From a virus, in IMG/VR virus record IMGVR_UViG_3300026290_000001: a stretch of 64,000 bases of DNA. One strand, 5' to 3'. Of this stretch, positions 6,692 to 57,034 are shown piece by piece (positions within the stretch are counted from its first letter, which is position 1; each line of letters begins with the position of its first letter). The position numbers were made by a program, and so were the translations under genes. The notes under the pieces are model-generated. The model was not told the DNA's origin. It saw only the letters and a program-made list of their open reading frames with translations, and made no database searches.

Positions 6692-7843
6692 TTAAAAATA
6701 CACGAGGCGAGCGCCGATAACCGAATACTTTTCAGACTCCGAATAACCCACATGCAGCCGAAACGCCCCCGCCTTATCCGCAGCCGACCAATCACCACCG
6801 AAACGCGGCAAGCGCGAAACATTCAGAACCGCGGAATCGGGATAATGCGTGCTTTCGCTTCCGTTTGCTGTTTTGACGATAAAACCCGTTTCCGTACCAC
6901 CTTGTATGTCGTCTATGTAACCGACTATATTCGTTGTCGCACCCTGTCCGTAATTTGTATATCCAGAACCAATATCGTTAAAACTTTCATTGCCGATTAG
7001 GATGTTTCGGTCTGCATCACTAAATAATCCGTCAATCCAATAGTAAATATTACCCCAAAAATCTTCTATGCCACAAAATTTTAATTGTTGTTTTCCTGTA
7101 GTTTCACCATAGAACATACCTTTAGCATTTGTAGCACCCGTATTAACTTTGGCACTATTCCCATCGACATAACCTCTGCCTAAAGCAGTTTGCCAATCCC
7201 TACTCTTAAACATCACCGTACCTAAGACTTGCAACATTAAAAGTTGAAAATAAGCCATTTGGTCATAACCACTGCCATTCGCCTGTGCAATAGTTCTAAA
7301 TGCACCGATAGTTTCATAAGCGGTTGTTATTTTTCCGCTTAAACTTCTTAATTTAGAACCGTCAGAATATCCTAAATAAGCTGAAATGTAACACTTGGCT
7401 TTTTCGGTTGTACCCCTCATATGTGCTAAACATTTATACCCACTATCTACCTTTGCATTAGCATATCTTACATACAAGTCAGTCCCAATGGTTTCAAATT
7501 TCCACCAAATCTTAGGAAATTCAATCATTACGTCACCATCTGCACCACTTGTAATGTCTGCATTTGTCCCGTCAATTTTTTTAGTATAATCGTTTGGATT
7601 TAGATAGTATTGCACCACTCCATTTTTAAGTAAACATGGTTTAATCTGATTAAATGGAAACTTGTCTTGCCAACTACCATAAGAAAAATTGCCATTATTT
7701 CCTTGGGCTGGAGTAAAACCTATTGCATTATCTGTATAGGCTAAAGCAGTTTCGGGGTTGCTATTTGTAGTATCAATTTTGATGCCATATATTTTAGGTG
7801 GTGATTTTACTGGTTTTCTTTTCCTAATTAATGCCTCACCCAT
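6692..7843 (-). CDS. tail fibre protein, distal part; 3' third is GC-rich
   Basis: 383 aa, Gly/Asn/Thr-rich, contiguous with upstream fibre ORF; 3' segment about 6700-6960 has markedly higher GC than the genome. Confidence 0.5.
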   Translation of the reverse strand: MGEALIRKRKPVKSPPKIYGIKIDTTNSNPETALAYTDNAIGFTPAQGNNGNFSYGSWQDKFPFNQIKPCLLKNGVVQYYLNPNDYTKKIDGTNADITSGADGDVMIEFPKIWWKFETIGTDLYVRYANAKVDSGYKCLAHMRGTTEKAKCYISAYLGYSDGSKLRSLSGKITTAYETIGAFRTIAQANGSGYDQMAYFQLLMLQVLGTVMFKSRDWQTALGRGYVDGNSAKVNTGATNAKGMFYGETTGKQQLKFCGIEDFWGNIYYWIDGLFSDADRNILIGNESFNDIGSGYTNYGQGATTNIVGYIDDIQGGTETGFIVKTANGSESTHYPDSAVLNVSRLPRFGGDWSAADKAGAFRLHVGYSESEKYSVIGARLVYF

Positions 7844-8686
7844 TTACCTCACCACCTTTAGCTGAATTGGCAAACTAACTTCAGGTTTATCCATCGCATA
7901 TAATGTTATAGAATTATTAGCAGTTGTTACACGATAAATTTTACCCCACTCATTTACTCGTTCTTTATCTGTAGCAAATGTGCCACTCATTACTACGTCA
8001 ACTATAGGATTGTCATTTGACGATATTCCAGTTACCGTTTGCGTTTTCGTATATGGGGCTTCTGTACCTGTCCAAGTAGTATCAAGTGTTGTCGTAAGCG
8101 TAGCGTGATATACGTGTCCTAATTTACTTATTGTCGCACCATCTGCCAGATGGTTAGCAAACTTTTTCCCAACCCCACTAACCAAAGGTCTTTTATCGAC
8201 AATTATATTTACAGTTTTATCCGCATTTGTACTAATAGTACCAATTAATAGACTTCCATCTGTAATTGTTCCATCTATACTACTAGCAAAATTTCCATCA
8301 TTTTTAAGATATATAGTATAGGTTATACTGGCCGATACTGGATTAATAGTAAAAGTTGTATCAGATGTTTTAGTTATAGTATTTATTGTATTTCCACTAA
8401 ATGTTTCACCAGTACCACTAGCAATAACTATACTTAATGTATCTGTACCACTCGTATAAAATGCAGATTTTATTCTAAATGGACTATCCAATTCTAATGA
8501 ATTTAATAAAAATCTCGCATCTTTCCATGTTGCTCCTAAATCTCTAGGATCAGTACCACCTAAAGTAACATTTGCATCATCAGCAACATGGATAATATCT
8601 AAACCACTATATTTATTTCTAATTTCTGCTACTTGCTCATCTGTATGTATAGCAAATACTTTGCTATTTTTAATTACACAAATCAT
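7844..8686 (-). CDS. tail fibre protein (shares a module with 8706-10469)
   Basis: Segment TFTINPVSASITYTIYLKNDGNF...LLIGTISTNADKTVNIIVDKRPLVSGVG is paralogous to a region of the upstream gene. Confidence 0.5.
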   Translation of the reverse strand: MICVIKNSKVFAIHTDEQVAEIRNKYSGLDIIHVADDANVTLGGTDPRDLGATWKDARFLLNSLELDSPFRIKSAFYTSGTDTLSIVIASGTGETFSGNTINTITKTSDTTFTINPVSASITYTIYLKNDGNFASSIDGTITDGSLLIGTISTNADKTVNIIVDKRPLVSGVGKKFANHLADGATISKLGHVYHATLTTTLDTTWTGTEAPYTKTQTVTGISSNDNPIVDVVMSGTFATDKERVNEWGKIYRVTTANNSITLYAMDKPEVSLPIQLKVVR

Positions 8687-13104: not shown

Positions 13105-14397
13105 TCAGTCATGAGATGAATTGGCTCTGTTCTGTTCATATATAATCCATGATTTTCTTGCATTAATTCTTTGCATGTTAGATATTTTCGGTGTCTTCAT
13201 ACCTCTGGGTGCATTACTAAAATCTATTTTTTCACCATCTATACCCATAAGAATGGCATAACCCGTAGACATTCTACCTTTAATAAAATATTCATTACCT
13301 ATATACCTTACTTTATCAAACTTCCTAAATCCTTCTATTTTACCTGTAGGTATCTTCTGATGACTTCTTACTCCTTTTGCCTGTTGGTAATCGCCTTTAG
13401 GGATACACTTTTTTAATACAGCTTTTTCAGTTTTAAAGCTTACATCAATTAACCCTATATCTTCAATATTATTTAAACAGGCAATAGCTACAGCATCGTA
13501 GTAATGCTCTTTTGGTAATCCCATTAGCTGTCTATGTTCTTTGGTAATAAATCCAAAGGTTTCTTTTGCATTTGGTAGCTGTCTTAATAATTGTTGTCTT
13601 ATACTATTCATCTGTGTTGTGTGTTTTAATTGTCCTTTAATTTTACCATTCTTCTTTAATTTAATTCCTCCTTTGTGCAAACTATTATGACAAGTTTTAC
13701 AAAGTGTAATTAAATTTTCTGCATCATCTGAGCCACCATTTTTTCTAAAAACTATATGATGTACCTCTAATCTGCTGTCTTTACTTTTTCCTTTGCAATA
13801 CTGGCAAATATATTTATCTCTACTTAATACATAAGCTTTAGTATTAGCAAATCCATAATTAGTTCCTTTTTGATAAAGCCATTTATTACTTAATACTGCT
13901 GGATTTTTTAAAGCATGTGGGTCAAATGTTGCTGTTTCTATTATTATATTTGTAATGGGCATTATTGATTTTGCAAAATCAATTTCTTTTAAGTGTGAAT
14001 TAATTTTACTTGTCATTGTAGGAGAAAATCTATCTTTTTTAATGCTGTTTTTCCTATTATTAAATCTAGGTTCCCTATATCTAGTTTTCCTATTCCTTCT
14101 AGTTCTCCTATATTTAGCTCTTTTGTCCATTTTGTCAGATATATCATTTCTAATTTCTACTTCTGATATATAATACACTTCATTTTCGTCATTTGCTACT
14201 GCACTTCCTATTTTACTACTACCAGTATCAATTCCTAAAGTTAAATCTTGTGTATAGTCTGTAGCATGATATAGTAATTTAATTGTAAATGGAGTTCTTC
14301 TTATGCATTTTGCTTTACCATCTTTTAACAATAATCTTGCTATTGCTGGTTTACAAGGCATTAAAGGACTCCCATCTTCATTAATTACATAAACCAT
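13105..14397 (-). CDS. iscB: IscB, OMEGA-family RNA-guided nuclease (PLMP domain, split RuvC, HNH)
   Basis: N-terminus VYVINEDGSPLMPCKPAIARLLLKDGKAKCIRRTPFTIKL (PLMP domain); RuvC-I LGIDTGSSKIGSAV; Arg-rich bridge helix RRTRRNRKTRYREPRFNNRK; RuvC-II ETATFD; HNH CQYCKGKS...LEVHHIVFRKNGGSDDAENLITLCKTCHNSLH; RuvC-III HYYDAVAIA; domain order exactly as in described IscB proteins. Confidence 0.85.
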   Translation of the reverse strand: MVYVINEDGSPLMPCKPAIARLLLKDGKAKCIRRTPFTIKLLYHATDYTQDLTLGIDTGSSKIGSAVANDENEVYYISEVEIRNDISDKMDKRAKYRRTRRNRKTRYREPRFNNRKNSIKKDRFSPTMTSKINSHLKEIDFAKSIMPITNIIIETATFDPHALKNPAVLSNKWLYQKGTNYGFANTKAYVLSRDKYICQYCKGKSKDSRLEVHHIVFRKNGGSDDAENLITLCKTCHNSLHKGGIKLKKNGKIKGQLKHTTQMNSIRQQLLRQLPNAKETFGFITKEHRQLMGLPKEHYYDAVAIACLNNIEDIGLIDVSFKTEKAVLKKCIPKGDYQQAKGVRSHQKIPTGKIEGFRKFDKVRYIGNEYFIKGRMSTGYAILMGIDGEKIDFSNAPRGMKTPKISNMQRINARKSWIIYEQNRANSSHD

Positions 14398-14681
14398 AAA
14401 ATCAAATCCTTTCGGATAAATACTCTGCTTAAAAGCAGGTTATGCGTATCTATATACTATTACCATATATAGAATTCGTCCTCATCTCGACAATGATAAA
14501 ATAGCTTATATGTATATCACACCGAGCCTTACCCTCCAACTCTACTTAGTGATATACGATAGAGCAATGGTCTGATGCGTCAACCAAAGGTATCATAACT
14601 ATTCTATCGTAGTATAAATTTCTCTATACTAAGTCTGGTGAACTTAGACTTTAGAAGCCTCCGACTTTAGTCGGGGGTAGT
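14398..14681 (-). ncRNA. candidate omega RNA of IscB (structured 5' region; guide expected at the high-coordinate end)
   Basis: 284-bp non-coding gap directly upstream of iscB with higher GC than surroundings and several stems readable by eye (CCTCCGACT/AGTCGGGGG, TACGATAGAG/CTATTCTATCGTA, AGTCT..AGACT, CTGCTT..AAGCAG). Confidence 0.45.
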
Positions 14682-14927
14682 TCACTCTATTTCAGGATTG
14701 ATAGATAAATCATCTTTGCTTGTACTATTTACATTAGATAAATTATCTTCATTGGACAAATCATCATTAATAATTTGACTTAATTCGTCTATTTTAGAAC
14801 TTAATTTGATAATCTCTATCTGATACATATTATTTTGTAAACATAAAGTGACTACATCTAAGGGCAAATTACTATTGTTTATTAACTCTGCCAGTTTAAT
14901 ATTAAAATCACTTATAATAAAAATCAC
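14682..14927 (-). CDS. hypothetical protein
   Basis: 81-aa ORF upstream of IscB locus. Confidence 0.25.
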   Translation of the reverse strand: MIFIISDFNIKLAELINNSNLPLDVVTLCLQNNMYQIEIIKLSSKIDELSQIINDDLSNEDNLSNVNSTSKDDLSINPEIE

Positions 14928-47255: not shown

Positions 47256-47331
47256 TGGAGCCGAGTATAGGATTTGAACCCATAATCTGTTGTTTACAAG
47301 ACAACTGCCTTATCAATTTGGCTAACCCGGC
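47256..47331 (-). tRNA. tRNA-Thr (anticodon UGU), CCA encoded
   Basis: Minus-strand 76 nt: acceptor GCCGGGU/ACUCGGC, anticodon stem GUUGU/ACAAC with loop CUUGUAA, T-arm AUGGG-UUCAAAU-CCUAU, discriminator U + CCA. Confidence 0.75.
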
Positions 47332-48380: not shown

Positions 48381-49202
48381 TTAAGGATTTTCTATTACTT
48401 TAGCAGGTCTATATTTATCTTTATAATTATGCCATGCTTTTCTCTGCCATTCTAATTGTTTTTCCCTCCAACAACTCCTACAAAATTTTCTTCTATTAGA
48501 TGTTGCTTTTATTAATTTTCCACATTCATTACAATTAATAATTTTTGGATTACCATTATACAAATCAAAGTAATATCCAATATTATCAAAGGTAGTTATT
48601 TCAAAAACTACTATTCCATTTTCCTTGATATTATTCATAAATATAAGATGAATTTTCCCCTTCATTCTAACATCAACCAATCCTAAAATCTCTAATTCAT
48701 TAATTATGGCATTTATTTTATACTCATTATTAGATATTTTAGACACTTCTAATATCTCATTATATGTATTTTGATTACCACTTATATAATTATATTTTAA
48801 AACATTTCCGTATTTTAATTTATGTATTTCTTTATATATCTTCATTTCTACTAACAAAACAAACAGAATTTTTTTATAATTATACTCTATATCTAAATTA
48901 TTAATGTATTCAATTTCTTCGTTTGTTATAGGAATACTATCAATAATTATTAAAGGGTTATCTTTTCTACCTCCTTTTTTGAGTGCAGTATTAATTTGTT
49001 TGAAATATAAAACATCATTGAAATTAACTATATACTTCTTGCAAAATTCATATAATTTTTCTTTTCGTTGTTTAGGTTTTATGCCAAGTTTTTTCCAATA
49101 TTTAACTAACAAAACCAATTCATAATTATGACGTTCAGTTAAAAATCCATGTTGTTCAATTTGTTTTGCATATTCTTCTTCATTGTATTTTTCTTGAATC
49201 AA
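48381..49202 (-). CDS. hypothetical protein with C-terminal zinc ribbon
   Basis: 273 aa; C-terminal CNECGK...CRSC motif; translationally coupled to upstream 934-aa gene. Confidence 0.3.
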   Translation of the reverse strand: MIQEKYNEEEYAKQIEQHGFLTERHNYELVLLVKYWKKLGIKPKQRKEKLYEFCKKYIVNFNDVLYFKQINTALKKGGRKDNPLIIIDSIPITNEEIEYINNLDIEYNYKKILFVLLVEMKIYKEIHKLKYGNVLKYNYISGNQNTYNEILEVSKISNNEYKINAIINELEILGLVDVRMKGKIHLIFMNNIKENGIVVFEITTFDNIGYYFDLYNGNPKIINCNECGKLIKATSNRRKFCRSCWREKQLEWQRKAWHNYKDKYRPAKVIENP

Positions 49203-52003
49203 ATAATCACTTCTTCCAACTTGTACTTTTTATTCAAGTAAACAATACCCCCTTCTTTATTAGGCATGGGAAAAAATATAGATTCTTTTGTGTTTGATTT
49301 AATATTTGAAAAAATATACTTACCAAAGGAATTCCATAAAATATCTTTGTTTGAACTTTTATATTCACAATAAAATATTTCAACTAAATAATTAGTTAAT
49401 TCATATGCGTATGAACATATTTCAAACATTCTACTTTTAAAGTCATCATAAATATTATTTACAATACGATCAGATTCTTCATCAAATTGCTCTTTGTTGG
49501 CATTTTGATTAATACCCATAGTATTCAAGTCTTTTAATTCTTTCATAAATTTTTTATACTCATTTAATACTTTCTGATAGGTTTCTTGATTTTTAGGAAT
49601 ATCATTTTTCATATATAATTTATACAAATCACCTATTTTACTTGTTTTTAATTTACTTTTAATATCAAAATCAACATTTTCAATATGTTTACACAATAAA
49701 TTCATTACACTGTCACTATCAATTACTGGTAAAAATCTATAATATGCATCCACAAAAGACTGTTCTTTTTCATTACAATTTTCCTTAATTAATAGTTCAT
49801 TTAATGTTAATCCAAATTTTTGCTGACTAGACAAATCGTTACTTTTGACATATTTTTTATATTTATTATAGGTATTTTTATAAAGATGAATAAAAAAATA
49901 TGGATGTTTATCCAATAATATTTTATTTAAAAATTCCTTTTCTTTTTTAACTTTTTCATCATCATCTTTATAAATTTTTTGCCTTTCAATCCAAATCTTA
50001 GGAATGCCCTTAACTTTTTTACCTATTTTTGCTTTATCAATTTGAGCAGATTGAAGTTTCGTACACATTTTTAATCTATTTATCAATGTTTGATATTCCA
50101 AACTTTCTTTATTAAAAAGAGGGAGTAAGGCATAAGCACTTGTACTTTTATTTGTTATAGAGCCTATAGTGGAACCAAAGGCGAAAAGATCAGCTTTATA
50201 TAAATCTTCTTCTGTAAATACCATAGATATAGATTTAGGTGCATCATAAACCACTGGCAACTCATCTTGAAATATTGAATTTAATATTGTTTGATCAGAA
50301 GTAGTTGCAATAATATCAAAATCCCAATCACTTCCAGCCCAATTAAGAGTTTCATAACCATGTATATTTACTATTACTCCACCATCATCACAATACTTAT
50401 ACCATTTATTTAATTTATCATGATTAATTAAATTTAATTTCAAATGTTCTGATTTATAAGTAAGTGGTGCTCTCATTGAATCTACGATACAAACATTTTT
50501 TTTATTCCAATAATTACAATAATACTCTTTTTCTTTAAGCAATCCAGTAACCTTTTGCCCGCAAATATGTTGCATCATAGCATAGGGATCACTTACTAAA
50601 ACCTGAAAATTTCCATCTAAAATAATTTCACCAAGACAACCTCTTTTTATGATATTGTTAGTATATTTATAAACTTTATCTCTGATATATTTATCATTTT
50701 TTAATTCATGATTAACTATCAAACTTTTTAACCAATAATTATTACTATACTTTAAAAAATATTGAATACTTTCTTGAGTTATATTTTCTCCTAATAAAAA
50801 TAATAACGTATAATATATATTATCAAAATTGACCCCAGTAACCCAATCAACAAAAGGAGTACAAATCTTCTTAATATCTTTTTGGTTTAAATCCAAAGTC
50901 TGTAAAAATTGATAATTCATTTTTAATATATCATTAGGTTTTTTAGGAGAAGTTAAACTAACACCCCATTTTAAATCATTCATCTCGCAATTATGTATAT
51001 ATTCTTCTAAACTACCAAACGCATTCCAAAGTTTAAATTGACTTTCCGATACAACCACATCGATATCCCTTAAATCAACCTGTATTGGATTATTATTGTC
51101 TTTGTATATAGTATTTATTATATAATTACCATGATTTTCATTTTCACAATATTCATCTATATCAAATACGCAGAGCATCCCTTTCAGAAAATTCTGCCTG
51201 ACACAAAATTGACCAGGAATATAATCTAATCCTAATTCTTCTGCCCATTCTTTAGCTTTACTTGGTTTAATCAACCCTTGACCATCAAACCTATTAAAAC
51301 TCAACTCTACTTCTTTAATTACAATATCATCATCTTTATTTTCTTCTGTTTCAGTTACAAAATTAACATTAACTTTTTGCTTAATTTCATAATCAGGCAC
51401 TACACAAAATTTAGGCGTACTTACTATTTTTGTAGATGAACCCGACAATCCTTTATATGCATTGTATTTAGAAGGGCATAGGGGTATATTTTTATCTCTA
51501 TTATTATCTAAAATTTCATTAAGTTGATTTAAAATTTTCTCGTTGCAAAATACCACTGTTGAAACTCTGGATTGACTGGCAGATGATGATAATCTAAAAT
51601 ACCGTTCAGAATTTAATAATAATCCATTTTTAAATAAATAATTATAATGTGAGTTATGTTCCATTACTATAGTTATGTACTCAGGAATAAAAAGCATATC
51701 TAAAATATTATTTTGTAATTCTATTATTCTACTTGAGTTTTCCTTTGAATATATTTGTTTTTTTAACCTATCTCTTTCTTTATACCATTGTTCAAGTTGT
51801 ATATAATTAATTTCTTTACCAGTTATTTTTCTAATACTTCTAAGAATTTGATTGTCTGATAAAGCAATTAACTCACCATTTTGTTTAGCTTGTTGTGGAG
51901 TTAATTGTATATCATACCCATATTCTTTAAGCCTAGATGATTTAAATTTCATAGTATATAATTGTCTATTTATCAATATTTTTTGCCTCCAATAAATCTT
52001 CAT
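49199..52003 (-). CDS. large hypothetical protein (replication/recombination module candidate)
   Basis: 934-aa ORF overlapping both neighbours (operon); no unambiguous catalytic motif recognised by eye. Confidence 0.4.
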   Translation of the reverse strand: MKIYWRQKILINRQLYTMKFKSSRLKEYGYDIQLTPQQAKQNGELIALSDNQILRSIRKITGKEINYIQLEQWYKERDRLKKQIYSKENSSRIIELQNNILDMLFIPEYITIVMEHNSHYNYLFKNGLLLNSERYFRLSSSASQSRVSTVVFCNEKILNQLNEILDNNRDKNIPLCPSKYNAYKGLSGSSTKIVSTPKFCVVPDYEIKQKVNVNFVTETEENKDDDIVIKEVELSFNRFDGQGLIKPSKAKEWAEELGLDYIPGQFCVRQNFLKGMLCVFDIDEYCENENHGNYIINTIYKDNNNPIQVDLRDIDVVVSESQFKLWNAFGSLEEYIHNCEMNDLKWGVSLTSPKKPNDILKMNYQFLQTLDLNQKDIKKICTPFVDWVTGVNFDNIYYTLLFLLGENITQESIQYFLKYSNNYWLKSLIVNHELKNDKYIRDKVYKYTNNIIKRGCLGEIILDGNFQVLVSDPYAMMQHICGQKVTGLLKEKEYYCNYWNKKNVCIVDSMRAPLTYKSEHLKLNLINHDKLNKWYKYCDDGGVIVNIHGYETLNWAGSDWDFDIIATTSDQTILNSIFQDELPVVYDAPKSISMVFTEEDLYKADLFAFGSTIGSITNKSTSAYALLPLFNKESLEYQTLINRLKMCTKLQSAQIDKAKIGKKVKGIPKIWIERQKIYKDDDEKVKKEKEFLNKILLDKHPYFFIHLYKNTYNKYKKYVKSNDLSSQQKFGLTLNELLIKENCNEKEQSFVDAYYRFLPVIDSDSVMNLLCKHIENVDFDIKSKLKTSKIGDLYKLYMKNDIPKNQETYQKVLNEYKKFMKELKDLNTMGINQNANKEQFDEESDRIVNNIYDDFKSRMFEICSYAYELTNYLVEIFYCEYKSSNKDILWNSFGKYIFSNIKSNTKESIFFPMPNKEGGIVYLNKKYKLEEVII

Positions 52004-53210
52004 ACTCTAAAAAATTAAGTCCTAATTCTTTAAAATCATTCATTACATTATATTTATAATTACGTACTTTATAATGTGAATACAATAAAGAACCACTTCT
52101 ACTTTCTCGAATTCGTTTTCTAGGCATCATTAAAATATATCTATTTGCACCTTTTGATTCAACAAATTTTAATTCCTTTAATATCAATTTTGCAAGATTA
52201 AGAATATTATCAGGATAATTATTAACCATTTTAAATCTAATATTATCAAGTTTATGATCATCTTCTAAAAATAATAGATAAATAGGTTTATTATTAAATC
52301 GAGATAGTTCTTGCTTTAATTTATTTAATTCTAATTTTCTTTCTTCTTTATGTTTTTGGAATTGTTTAAAATATGATTCTTCATTTTTTCTAATAGTTTC
52401 TTGTCTTTTTAACTCTTTTTCCTTCTTTTTATCAGAATATTGTTTATTTTTATTAAATACTTCTTCTGAAAGTAAAAAATTATTATTTTTAAAAATGAGT
52501 CCATTAATATCAATAATATATTTCTTAATATCTTTATCAAAAGATATTAATTTATTATGCAACAAATGTCTTTTCTCGTTATCATAATATTTACCATTTG
52601 CAATTTTAAATCTAAAATCACTTAAGCCCAATATATTCAAATGAGTATAATTAAACATAAATAATTTGTACATTGGATCAAAATAAAAACCTGTAAATTG
52701 TTCTATTGCTTTATCTCTAAACCTATTTCCTATTTCTGCTTTTTCAATATATTTATCCGTCCCTAAAATCCAAATATCATTTATATCTGCTAATTTATAT
52801 AATTCATGTCTTTCTAAACATTCTGTTGCTATTGGACTACATTGAAATTCGAAAACAAATCTTTTATCACCTATTTCAAAATACAAATCAGGTCTTTGCC
52901 TAGTTTCTGGTATATATGATTCTAACTTTATATTTGATAAACCATCTTGCTTTAACAACCAATTATAAAGCATTATTTTACCTTTAATATGTTCGTCTGT
53001 TTCAGGTTCATAATAAATACCTTCACAATTAATATTTTTTTCTTTATGTCTAAAATATGGATAAACTATTTCTCCGTGACAATACTCATAAAAATTACCA
53101 CAATCGGGACAAAGTAATCTATTTTCTTCAGACCATTTTTTTAGAATAAATTTATCATATTTACCATCAAAACAATTAATAATTGTATTACCAATCTTAC
53201 AAGTTAACAA
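51966..53210 (-). CDS. CoiA-like nuclease-family protein
   Basis: N-terminal CPDCGN...YPYFRHK...C...ETDEHIKGK..LYNWL and ...RQRPDLYFEIGDKRFVFEFQCSPI... match the competence protein CoiA family pattern (zinc finger + nuclease core). Confidence 0.55.
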   Translation of the reverse strand: MLTCKIGNTIINCFDGKYDKFILKKWSEENRLLCPDCGNFYEYCHGEIVYPYFRHKEKNINCEGIYYEPETDEHIKGKIMLYNWLLKQDGLSNIKLESYIPETRQRPDLYFEIGDKRFVFEFQCSPIATECLERHELYKLADINDIWILGTDKYIEKAEIGNRFRDKAIEQFTGFYFDPMYKLFMFNYTHLNILGLSDFRFKIANGKYYDNEKRHLLHNKLISFDKDIKKYIIDINGLIFKNNNFLLSEEVFNKNKQYSDKKKEKELKRQETIRKNEESYFKQFQKHKEERKLELNKLKQELSRFNNKPIYLLFLEDDHKLDNIRFKMVNNYPDNILNLAKLILKELKFVESKGANRYILMMPRKRIRESRSGSLLYSHYKVRNYKYNVMNDFKELGLNFLEYEDLLEAKNIDK

Positions 53211-53226
53211 TAAAATTATTCCTCCT

Positions 53227-53466
53227 TTAAACAGACAATATAAAAGCTAAAAAACAAAATGCGATAATGCCAATCACTATATTTGCAGTTGTATTTGCAA
53301 CCGGATCAATAGTATTATTATTATTTTGCTTTACACTTGAATTTAAATAAAAATTACTATTCCTTTTTGCATTTCTCTTTTTTCTATCATTCTCTCTTAA
53401 TGCATAAGTAACTCCTCTTGCTATTGACCTATTTAAAACTCCATAATTTCTGGGTCTCATCATCAT
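53227..53466 (-). CDS. small tail-anchored membrane protein (uncertain)
   Basis: 79 aa, basic N-terminus, C-terminal hydrophobic helix; overlaps other frames. Confidence 0.2.
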   Translation of the reverse strand: MMMRPRNYGVLNRSIARGVTYALRENDRKKRNAKRNSNFYLNSSVKQNNNNTIDPVANTTANIVIGIIAFCFLAFILSV

Positions 53467-54186: not shown

Positions 54187-55014
54187 CTATTGATTAGATA
54201 GTAATTTTTCTTTATGTTCCCTTACACGTTTAATTGCTAAATTAAAATATTGATCATGTGGTTCACTCAGACTCCATTCAAAACCTATGTAATTTCTTTC
54301 AGTATTTAAACAAGCTATCGCTGTTGTGCCTGAACCTATGCAATTATCTAAGACTAAATCTCCTTCATTTGTATATGTTTTAATTAGATATTCAAATAAT
54401 TTTACTGGTTTTTGAGTGGGGTGTGGTAATTTTTCTTTAGAATTTGAATTAACTATAGGATTATATATTACAGTTGATGGATTTTTTAATTTTGCATTGT
54501 ACACATCATAACTTCTTCCAGCATAATCTGTATTAAAAACAATTTCATTATCTTTTCTTTTTGAGATAGAACTTCTAAAATTAATATTATTATTTTCTTG
54601 CATTTGTTTCATTCTTTCGCTTTTACGTTCTATCATTTGTCTATTATATGTATATTTATTTTTTGCAAATATTAATATATTTTCATGATATTTTAAATGT
54701 CTATATTTTGCATTTGCAAAATTACTCGCTCTATCTTTTTCCCATATTAGTTCTTCTTTAAACCAATCAATATTACTACAAATTAATTTGCTTGTAAATG
54801 GTTGACTTGCTGTTAATACTATAGCACCATTATCTTTTATAATTCTTTTATACTGTTCCCAAAGTTTATCAAAAGAAATTAAACTATCCCATTTTGCTAT
54901 TGTAGTTCCATAAGGTAGATCACATAAAATCATATCTATACTTTTATCAGGTAATAAACACATACCATTTTCACCAATACAATCTTCGTTATAAATAGTA
55001 TTTAATTTAATCAA
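54187..55014 (-). CDS. DNA methyltransferase (N6-adenine/N4-cytosine amino-MTase)
   Basis: Motif IV-like ILCDLPYGTT near N-terminus and SAM-binding LVLDNCIGSGTTAIA near C-terminus. Confidence 0.75.
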   Translation of the reverse strand: MIKLNTIYNEDCIGENGMCLLPDKSIDMILCDLPYGTTIAKWDSLISFDKLWEQYKRIIKDNGAIVLTASQPFTSKLICSNIDWFKEELIWEKDRASNFANAKYRHLKYHENILIFAKNKYTYNRQMIERKSERMKQMQENNNINFRSSISKRKDNEIVFNTDYAGRSYDVYNAKLKNPSTVIYNPIVNSNSKEKLPHPTQKPVKLFEYLIKTYTNEGDLVLDNCIGSGTTAIACLNTERNYIGFEWSLSEPHDQYFNLAIKRVREHKEKLLSNQ

Positions 55015-55454: not shown

Positions 55455-56204
55455 TTAAAATTCCACTAATCTATTTTTCGCTATTTCACAATATTTTTCT
55501 TCTAATTCAATTCCAATACATTTACGTTTAAGATTTCGTGCCGCCAATAAAGTTGTTCCTGAACCACAGGTAAAATCTAAAATAAGATCGTTTTCATTTG
55601 TGTATGTATTAATTAAATATTCCATTAATTCTAATGGTTTTTGTGTAGGATGAAATAAATTATTATTTGGATTTGCAAAATTTAATATATTTTTAGGATA
55701 ACCTTTAGCATTACTATTTCCAAAATGCTTTTCTTTCCCAAAAGTATATTCTCCATCCACTTTATTTTCTCTACTTGGTCTATTATTATTAAATTCTCCA
55801 TAAATTAACCCTTGCGGATTATAAATGCATTGATTTTTATAAAAAACTAAAACATCTTCTATTGCTCTCATTGGTTGTTTTTTAGCATTTAAATGACCAC
55901 TTGGTTTAGTTTTTATCCATTTCCAATCATATTTATATTCTTTAATATTACTAATTCTTAAAAAACTACTAAAAGGTTCTCCTCCAAACAATAATGTAGG
56001 TGTTGTATTTTTTGTTAATTTATGTAATCTATCCCACATGTCATTAAATTTGATAATTTCATCCCATTTACATTTAGTAGTACCGTATGGTGGGTCAGTA
56101 ATTATTGCATCAAATTTAATACCTTTCTCAATAATCTTATCCATTACCTCTAAACAATCACCTTGAAATAATCTTATGTATTCGTCTTTATAGTATAATT
56201 TCAA
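55455..56204 (-). CDS. DNA methyltransferase (amino-MTase), paralog of 56249-57034
   Basis: IITDPPYGTT motif and LDFTCGSGTTLLAA SAM-binding motif; N- and C-termini near-identical to neighbour, central region differs. Confidence 0.8.
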   Translation of the reverse strand: MKLYYKDEYIRLFQGDCLEVMDKIIEKGIKFDAIITDPPYGTTKCKWDEIIKFNDMWDRLHKLTKNTTPTLLFGGEPFSSFLRISNIKEYKYDWKWIKTKPSGHLNAKKQPMRAIEDVLVFYKNQCIYNPQGLIYGEFNNNRPSRENKVDGEYTFGKEKHFGNSNAKGYPKNILNFANPNNNLFHPTQKPLELMEYLINTYTNENDLILDFTCGSGTTLLAARNLKRKCIGIELEEKYCEIAKNRLVEF

Positions 56205-56248: not shown

Positions 56249-57034
56249 TTAAAATTCCACTAATCTATTTTTCGCTATTTCACAATATTTTTCTTCTAAT
56301 TCAATTCCAATACATTTACGTTTAAGATTTCTTGCCGCTAACAATGTTGTCCCTGAACCACAGGTAAAATCTAAAATAAGTTCGTTTTCTTTTGTGTATG
56401 TATTAATAAGGTATTCTAATAGTTCAATTGGTTTTTGAGTCGGATGTAATTTTTTCCCTGACATACTAGCGTTGCTTAAAGTATAAATACTTGTTGGATG
56501 TCTATCTTTATATTCTTTATGCCCCAAGTCTTTTATGGTATGTCCTTCTCTTAATGTGCTATTTCTTGAACCATAAAATGTTTTATTAACTTTTTTTATA
56601 TCATCTCGTTTTGTTTTTTGAGGATAATAATTCATTTCATTACCTTTTGAGAAAACTGCTTTTGCTTTACTAAAAATTAAAATATTTTCATGTACTCTAC
56701 CTACTTGAAAATTCATCATTTGAAAATTAGATGGTTTTACTTTATCCCAAATAATTTCATATCTAAATAGTTGAGGATTACTCATAATTAAAGCACTCGT
56801 AAAAGGTTGAGAACCATTCAATACTATTGCACCTTTATCTTTGATTAATTGAGTAATTTTATCCCACATCTTATCAAAAGGAATTATCGTGTCCCATTTA
56901 CATGCTGTAGTACCATAAGGTGGATCAGTTATTATCGCATCAAATTCAATACCTTTCTCAATCAATTTATCCATCACTTCTAAACAGTCACCTTGAAACA
57001 ATCTTATGTATTCATCTTTATAGTATAATTTCAT
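56249..57034 (-). CDS. DNA methyltransferase (amino-MTase), paralog of 55455-56204
   Basis: IITDPPYGTT and LDFTCGSGTTLLAA motifs; upstream/downstream non-coding sequence also duplicated. Confidence 0.8.
   Translation of the reverse strand: MKLYYKDEYIRLFQGDCLEVMDKLIEKGIEFDAIITDPPYGTTACKWDTIIPFDKMWDKITQLIKDKGAIVLNGSQPFTSALIMSNPQLFRYEIIWDKVKPSNFQMMNFQVGRVHENILIFSKAKAVFSKGNEMNYYPQKTKRDDIKKVNKTFYGSRNSTLREGHTIKDLGHKEYKDRHPTSIYTLSNASMSGKKLHPTQKPIELLEYLINTYTKENELILDFTCGSGTTLLAARNLKRKCIGIELEEKYCEIAKNRLVEF

Follow-up and report, generated by a model that had tools for sequence, protein, structure and literature searches.

The window analysed here is a 64,000-nucleotide stretch of the virus record IMGVR_UViG_3300026290_000001 from IMG/VR. 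It consists of low-GC phage DNA (about 22–38% GC per 2-kb segment), and its genes lie nearly all on the minus strand. Between positions 48,381 and 53,210 three minus-strand open reading frames (ORFs) were confirmed, here denoted genes A, B and C. In an initial annotation, made by a model from the letters alone, these had been described as an operon encoding a CoiA-like nuclease, a 934-aa protein without an assignable motif and a zinc-ribbon protein, with a possible function in replication, recombination or counter-defence. The results presented below point instead to the phage's own transcription module, i.e. a YonO-type RNA polymerase and its conserved partner, with a mobile nuclease cassette at the 5′ end; we assign this reading a probability of roughly 0.72. 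Homologies, motifs, folds, synteny statistics, fusions and a presence/absence polymorphism with its junctions were observed directly, and from them we infer, tentatively, a homing mechanism for the nuclease gene. The features of the locus are as follows:

51966..53210, minus strand: gene A, CoiA-family PD-(D/E)XK nuclease, 414 aa, TTG start
53221..53228, minus strand: strong Shine-Dalgarno sequence AAAGGAGG of gene A, read directly from the DNA
53013..53210, minus strand: residues 1–66 of A, probable CoiA_N-type zinc finger (alignments A3 and A6)
52842..52889, minus strand: catalytic core of A, D108...E121-x-Q123, DLYFEIGDKRFVFEFQ, from the translation
49199..51976, minus strand: gene B, predicted YonO-type RNA polymerase, 925 aa from a TTG start (longest ORF 49199..52003, 934 aa)
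51986..51990, minus strand: GGAGG Shine-Dalgarno sequence of B, 9 nt ahead of the TTG at 51976 and within the 3′ end of gene A
50315..50329, minus strand: DxDxD metal-binding motif of B, DWDFD (D559, D561, D563), from the translation
48381..49202, minus strand: gene C, probable polymerase partner, 273 aa, with helical N-domain, winged helix and zinc ribbon
48597..48884, minus strand: winged-helix-type domain of C, residues about 107–202
48471..48533, minus strand: zinc ribbon of C, C224-x2-C227...C241-x2-C244, CNECGKLIKATSNRRKFCRSC, from the translation

Genes B and C overlap by 4 nt (TTGA). The overlap of A and B amounts to 38 nt when the longest B ORF is used and to 11 nt if B starts at the TTG at 51976. 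Of the two candidate starts, the ATG at 52003, the first in frame, lacks a Shine-Dalgarno sequence, and the TTG was preferred. Because of the GGAGG spacing and the N-termini of the homologues, which coincide with residue 10 of B (TTG 51976), B probably comprises 925 aa and overlaps the stop of A by 11 nt. The arrangement as three overlapping, coupled genes, as first described, is real. A scan for promoters and terminators around the locus found no terminator-like sites inside the three-gene block (0 found), sigma-70 promoter matches at background level (80 found versus 73 expected) and no sequence that could be proposed as a YonO-type promoter. Likewise, a near-identity DNA search of the GenBank phages with this region of the window returned no match.

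Gene B and the YonO family

Among the relatives of the cellular multi-subunit RNA polymerases, YonO is, to our knowledge, the smallest. Judged from its homologies, gene B almost certainly encodes an enzyme of this type, a single-subunit two-barrel DNA-dependent RNA polymerase whose barrels would be of the double-psi beta kind. The blastp alignment to SPbeta YonO covers about 450 residues (residues 179–624, 24% identity, E = 4e-24), and a second, co-linear C-terminal segment also aligns. When 50,697 GenBank phage records were searched by tblastn, 42 were matched, the best being Bacillus phage BUCT082 with 55% identity over the full length; also found were c-st, Enterocloster phage PMBT24, Psychrobacillus phage Perkons and 0305phi8-36, as well as yonO of SPbeta and its relatives at E about 1e-15 (7e-16). 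The protein furthermore matched PHROG 8308 (E = 8e-166), a family labelled 'unknown function', and the B family comprised 1431 representatives at 50% clustering. In a five-sequence alignment (A1), the aspartates D559, D561 and D563, the metal-binding triad of the beta′-like barrel, do not vary and stand opposite DNDGD of YonO. The glycine of the YonO motif is replaced by phenylalanine in DWDFD, and this glycine-less form is shared with BUCT082 (DFDYD). The large protein consequently does contain an assignable motif, that of a polymerase, in addition to its clear YonO homology. B would represent a new member of a known family, the YonO-like enzymes of c-st and 0305phi8-36 having already been noted in the literature.

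A profile search with five B sequences gave nothing beyond a sub-threshold match to plant RDR2, and it was tblastn and blastp that reached YonO. In this weak but correctly placed family-profile match (E = 0.3) the invariant residues R269, K274 and G275 of B fall within a motif matching the first barrel of RDR2, a candidate for the second, beta-like barrel with its basic residues. The match fits the published kinship of YonO with RNA-dependent RNA polymerases (PMC7824862). Sequence searches against PDB chains returned only chance matches for A and B, and no meaningful match to B or C was obtained in Pfam or NCBIfam, the sole Pfam match of B being at chance level.

SPbeta YonO has been shown experimentally to be the DNA-dependent RNA polymerase for the SPbeta late genes (Forrest et al. 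2017, PMC5467207). It has in common with B a homologous catalytic core, the aligned DxDxD and the lack of a matching NCBIfam model. The neighbourhoods are also similar, with HU, YonK and a YonJ-type phosphoesterase followed by structural genes in SPbeta, and the order B-C-HU-YonK-YonJ in prophage copies of the present locus. By analogy with the SPbeta enzyme, B would transcribe the late structural genes located downstream on the same strand, and would thereby be specific for late genes.

Conversely, B differs from SPbeta YonO in its motif (DWDFD versus DNDGD), in being about 90 residues longer and in having a nuclease cassette ahead of it. Moreover, SPbeta YonO carries a zinc ribbon on its own chain, whereas the ribbon in the window resides on the separate 273-aa protein C, whose helical domain and winged helix are absent from SPbeta YonO. 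The same split, into a polymerase and a ribbon protein of 240–278 aa, is seen in c-st (CST179/178/177), PMBT24 and BUCT082, where the proteins are annotated as hypothetical, as 'RNA-dependent RNA polymerase' (PMBT24) or as 'YonO C-terminal part'. All three genes are present in BUCT082, a cultured phage of B. subtilis, with identities of 44% (A), 55% (B) and 43% (C), and recognisable homologues of A and C, both annotated 'hypothetical', were found among the GenBank phages only in this genome. In c-st the polymerase gene is interrupted, and both c-st and PMBT24 lack the nuclease.

Gene C as a candidate polymerase subunit

The association of C with B was evaluated in two samples of loci. The polymerase-centred sample comprised 80 IMG/VR loci retrieved with the polymerase alignment, polymerase relatives in that database numbering at least 328; the nuclease-centred sample comprised 85 loci, 80 from IMG/VR and 5 from the first three contig look-ups. 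A homologue of C lies directly downstream of B in 74 of the 80 and in 81 of the 85 loci, respectively, mostly at a spacing of −17 to +2 nt. Over 113 distinct loci the pairwise identities of B and C are correlated with a Pearson coefficient of 0.94, and in no pair is C more than 7 points more similar than B. As judged from these identities, B and C are inherited together and are diverging together. A two-gene unit, composed of the polymerase and a co-diverging winged-helix/zinc-ribbon protein, is the form of most YonO-type enzymes, and SPbeta YonO is suggested to be a reduced form.

The zinc ribbon given for C in the initial annotation proved genuine; it is a C-terminal CxxC...CxxC, with C224, C227 and C241 invariant and C244 conserved in at least 90% of 81 homologues. 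In a search within a 15-protein database the ribbon aligned to residues 799–824 of SPbeta YonO (50% identity, E = 6e-5). It matches the last 30–40 residues of both SPbeta and Perkons YonO, past the region aligned to B, and the ribbon therefore belongs to the polymerase chain in these proteins. In P0251, a family representative of 1173 aa, the whole of C is fused to the polymerase, residues 921–1169 aligning to residues 6–246 of C (34% identity, E = 5e-29). The structure of C is predicted with confidence and has a winged-helix fold, within an architecture of helical N-domain, winged helix, beta-hairpin and zinc ribbon; the likenesses listed for it are plasmid RepA, Cdt1, Cdc6, ORC, the N-terminal domain of DnaD (DnaD-NTD) and LexA. 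Nothing was matched by C in PHROGs, and the family was previously unnamed.

Some partners of the C family, about 300–326 aa in length, contain a tandem double zinc ribbon with an extra CxxC...CxxC:

L098, 10903–11805: two-ribbon C-family partner
L105, 10892–11800: two-ribbon C-family partner
L114, 11938–12798: two-ribbon C-family partner
L087, 12465–13445: two-ribbon C-family partner

The adjacency, the co-divergence, the ribbon fusion and the full fusion together make it probable that C is a physical partner of B, most likely a subunit of the polymerase. B and C would thus form a transcription module rather than take part in replication, recombination or counter-defence, as was first supposed. 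A more specific role of C in promoter recognition or initiation is advanced tentatively, with a slightly less than even chance. According to Forrest et al. (PMC5467207), a promoter or initiation factor for YonO remained to be found, and C appears to be the best candidate for it. The protein would be translated by coupling from the mRNA of B and serve as a polymerase subunit, its ribbon docking on the polymerase as an anchor and its winged helix contacting DNA. An architectural analogy is offered by archaeal TFE, eukaryotic TFIIE-alpha and RPC62-type factors, which combine a winged helix with a zinc ribbon and act with two-barrel polymerases; no sequence homology to these was detected, and C has an extra N-terminal helical domain. 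C might then serve a minimal two-barrel polymerase as its dedicated subunit for initiation or promoter specificity, a phage counterpart of TFE/TFIIE-like factors. In a literature search of incomplete coverage no description was found of a conserved YonO partner protein or of the split-versus-fused ribbon. C is a concrete, testable candidate for the missing YonO factor, and the question of promoter recognition becomes directly testable; an initiation subunit of this kind, if true, would answer how YonO-type enzymes find their promoters.

Gene A, a CoiA-family nuclease gene of sporadic occurrence

The CoiA nuclease domain PF06054 is detected in A at 96.1 bits (cut-off 20.3, E = 3e-27). The presence of a CoiA-family nuclease in a phage is thereby supported, so that the outcome named as refuting the initial annotation, an assignment of all three genes to a well-known replication module with CoiA similarity unsupported, did not arise. 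The CoiA_N zinc-finger model scores 15.7 bits with A, below its cut-off of 26.3, and relatives of A pass this threshold. Of the finger ligands, C62 is invariant, and at least 90% of sequences retain C34, C37, H45 and H55; invariant in 78 homologues are also E68, E73, H74, K78, E97, D108, E121 and Q123. An AlphaFold2 (AF2) model with a predicted local distance difference test (pLDDT) score of 92 recovers the PD-(D/E)XK core; a zinc finger precedes this core, and a beta domain, a 59-residue helix and, at the C-terminus, an alpha/beta domain follow it. The model has fold similarity to Hjc, NucS and Bax1, and Foldseek against PDB gave only weak matches to the nuclease core. A profile of the C-terminal domain found nothing significant among PDB sequences, and PHROGs contained nothing for A.

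CoiA has been characterized as a structure-specific PD-(D/E)XK D-loop resolvase of Bacillota with a C2H2-type finger, and the substitutions D95A and E105A, which affect the beta2 Asp and the beta3 Glu, abolish the function of the pneumococcal protein (bioRxiv 10.1101/2024.02.06.579203). By motif position, with no pneumococcal sequence aligned, D108 and E121 of A would stand at the places expected for D95 and E105 of Streptococcus pneumoniae CoiA. On the basis of these sequence features, A is proposed to be an active CoiA-family endonuclease. Like CoiA, it combines a probable N-terminal zinc finger with a CoiA_nuc core containing the beta2 Asp and beta3 Glu. Unlike CoiA, it is encoded by phages and prophages outside the competence regulon, has a different C-terminal half without a Pfam match, is always found next to the polymerase gene of a phage and has the behaviour of a mobile cassette. 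As the competence-regulon context, with its role in transformation together with RadA, is missing, and the gene is found in phages or prophages and beside a polymerase in 85 of 85 loci, A is considered a protein with a CoiA-family domain and not a CoiA orthologue.

In every locus of the nuclease-centred sample the gene immediately downstream of A, on the same strand, is YonO-like (85/85), and two further contig look-ups displayed the same A-B order, giving 5 of 5 look-ups in all. The A-B overlap is usually 4–8 nt. The polymerases beside A range from 21% to 100% identity to B and include SPbeta-type enzymes without a separate C (L159 and L160). Only 6 of the 80 polymerase-centred IMG/VR loci carry A, and nuclease relatives were found on at least 126 viral contigs of IMG/VR, as compared with the at least 328 polymerase relatives. 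The A branch also occurs in Brevibacillus and Metabacillus prophages, and homologues of A number at least 412. In three pairs of loci (L032/L054, L098/L021 and L007/L006) polymerases that are 95–97% identical occur with and without A, and DNA alignments of such A-containing and A-free relatives reveal a clean 1.1-kb insertion. Its junctions place the cassette between the original ribosome-binding site of B and the ATG of B, and its 3′ end bears a look-alike ribosome-binding site.

The sequences of A and B have also followed different courses. For the window and locus L086, the identity of A is 86% within the N-terminal domain and 78% for the entire protein, and that of B is 28%; in another lineage-crossing pair the values are 88% for A and 28% for B. 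The reverse is seen between the window and L007, with 69% identity for B and 40% for A. Overall the correlation of the A and B identities is weak (Spearman 0.40), and many pairs have A at 76–88% and B at 19–29%. A co-evolving subunit of B was thus rejected as an explanation of A on the basis of the identity matrices. A is very probably an optional, horizontally mobile cassette, and the three genes are not a single functional unit as originally suggested, given that the nuclease gene is present or absent between near-identical polymerase genes. The CoiA family would thereby possess a large phage-borne, probably mobile branch, tied exclusively to a polymerase gene. The linkage of CoiA to YonO was not found described in a literature search of incomplete coverage.

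Selfish elements, rival readings and the surrounding region

The proposed mechanism starts from a discrete cassette of 1.1–1.6 kb, encoding A and located between the original ribosome-binding site of B and its start codon; the 3′ end of the cassette would provide B with a new ribosome-binding site in place of the original one. The cassette would be dispensable and move between phage lineages. During co-infection, A would cleave genomes that lack the cassette, close to where the polymerase gene begins, and recombinational repair would then copy the cassette in, in the manner of a free-standing homing endonuclease. It is typical of homing that A behaves as a cassette, occurs sporadically, crosses lineages, has an intact active site, strictly prefers one site and is accompanied by bona fide homing endonucleases, and we place spread by homing at a little below even odds. 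Free-standing homing endonucleases of phages are exemplified by the T4 Seg/Mob type, and I-Bth0305I is an intron endonuclease with a PD-(D/E)XK fold. A differs from the known homing endonucleases in its CoiA catalytic family and in that no target site, NUMOD or helix-turn-helix (HTH) module was identified. No description of a CoiA-family protein as a homing enzyme was found in the literature search. If homing were confirmed, the catalytic repertoire of free-standing homing endonucleases would be extended by a new, CoiA-derived class, and 'CoiA' annotations in genomes that are not naturally competent would be explained.

In other relatives the slot upstream of the polymerase is occupied by Seg-like homing endonucleases of the GIY-YIG/NUMOD3 type, and elsewhere by N6/N4 DNA methylases, guanylate kinase or small ORFs. 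A second family of 494–615 aa with a CoiA_N zinc finger (Pfam E about 1e-10) is found in the same slot:

L008, 4200–5981: second upstream family
L014, 4140–5987: second upstream family
L016, 1933–3780: second upstream family
L023, 4520–6004: second upstream family
L029, 4144–5988: second upstream family
L047, 4142–5974: second upstream family

This family was not recognised by the CoiA_nuc model, and hhalign of its alignment (A7) against the CoiA-like alignment matched the zinc finger only, with a probability of 76%. The family might represent a diverged sister of the nuclease cassette. By eye, these proteins have a possible RPD...FE motif resembling the CoiA core.

Furthermore, many relatives have YonO-like genes that are split by inserts at two recurrent positions, one at the DxDxD codons (residues 559–563 of B in the window) and the other at residue 656/657. 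The inserts measure 0.3–1.1 kb, and some encode HNH_3/NUMOD4/NUMOD1 (I-HmuI-like) endonucleases; the polymerase gene of the window is uninterrupted. The inserts include:

L114, 10067–11107: polymerase-gene insert
L136, 9782–10905: polymerase-gene insert
L046, 7632–8642 and 8929–9796: polymerase-gene inserts
L030, 7941–8216: polymerase-gene insert
L002 (c-st), 7590–7956: polymerase-gene insert

None of the Rfam group I or group II intron models matched in these inserts, and their designation as introns is consequently based on the embedded HNH/NUMOD ORFs only. The homing endonucleases in the slot and the recurrent HNH/NUMOD inserts identify the polymerase gene as a hotspot for selfish nucleases.

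A different function of A would be that of a polymerase accessory, a structure-specific nuclease acting on D-loops, R-loops or single-stranded regions. It could then give the lid-less enzyme an entry point or resolve R-loops left behind, and in A-carrying phages the three genes would function as a single operon. The fungal YonO relative QDE-1 works on single-stranded DNA in concert with RPA and a helicase. The position of A immediately upstream of B with the usual short overlap, the invariance of its catalytic residues in 78 sequences, the cleavage of D-loop structures by CoiA (bioRxiv 10.1101/2024.02.06.579203) and the absence from YonO of the R-loop-preventing lid and rudder (PMC5467207) are all consistent with this role. 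If true, such a partnership of nuclease and polymerase, in which initiation or processing depends on nicks, D-loops or R-loops, would be without precedent. Nevertheless, we regard it as unlikely, since most polymerase loci lack A, including some with a 96–97%-identical B, A and B do not co-diverge, and the same type of A occurs beside polymerases of 28% identity. In addition, no A-B fusion was seen in the top 150 family representatives, and the genes that otherwise fill the slot, namely methylases, GIY-YIG endonucleases, a guanylate kinase and small ORFs, are unrelated.

Alternatively, A could be a recombination or packaging resolvase or a nuclease degrading host DNA, its adjacency to B reflecting only a gene order that is conserved where the early region ends. 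The replication/recombination idea of the initial annotation comes close to this reading. It agrees with the D-loop resolvase function of the CoiA family in transformation (bioRxiv 10.1101/2024.02.06.579203), with the fold similarity to Hjc, NucS and Bax1, and with the fact that A travels with upstream early genes between the window and L086. A generic nuclease would be expected at varied sites in mosaic phages, yet all 85 copies abut the polymerase start; close relatives lack both A and any analogue in the slot, and the junctions delimit a single-gene cassette, not a module. We consider this reading highly improbable. A defence or counter-defence module of nuclease effector and large sensor protein, counter-defence having been suggested initially and three DNA methyltransferase genes lying just upstream in the window, can practically be dismissed, as PADLOC matched none of the three proteins and the large one is a polymerase whose catalytic motif is intact and whose synteny is that of an SPbeta-like late region.

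The reading as a transcription module with a mobile nuclease cassette has evidence weighing against it as well. No target site for A was found. The 5′ ends of B in the window and L086 have no detectable DNA similarity despite the 78% identity of A, so that a sequence-specific target would have to lie elsewhere. CoiA is itself structure-specific and not sequence-specific, and the NUMOD and HTH modules typical of homing endonucleases were not found in the C-terminal half of A by Pfam, PDB profile or Foldseek searches. The strict A-B adjacency is equally expected if A needs co-expression with B. With regard to C, its binding to B is deduced from the ribbon and full fusions, P0251 is a lone metagenomic ORF and possibly an assembly or frameshift artefact, and SPbeta YonO is active in vitro on scaffolds without a C-like domain beyond the ribbon.

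Downstream of C the window contains two small ORFs, a tRNA-Thr gene, a calcineurin-like phosphoesterase gene and a probable large terminase gene, the last assigned by position only, with no match in Pfam. The tRNA-Thr gene (anticodon TGT, 47256–47331, minus strand) lies in a 306-nt gap between the small ORFs following C and the YonJ-like phosphoesterase gene, and relatives L030 and L046 likewise have tRNA genes soon after the polymerase module. The three methyltransferase-like genes just upstream of A are located at 54187–55014, 55455–56204 and 56249–57034 (all minus strand), and two of them form a closely paralogous pair whose N- and C-termini are identical. Where relatives lack the nuclease cassette, an N6_N4 methylase is found directly upstream of the polymerase. 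In c-st, an Rfam RAGATH-18 RNA match (L002, 11953–12013, 64 bits) is situated just past an IS element downstream of the polymerase module and just ahead of the HU-like gene. Finally, the window has a strong match to HEARO RNA (Rfam RF02033) at 14475–14685 on the minus strand, scoring 121.7 bits where the gathering score is 83. A 430-aa ORF (13105–14397, likewise minus strand) follows directly downstream of it, and the pair looks like an IscB/HNH-type mobile element within the phage structural region.

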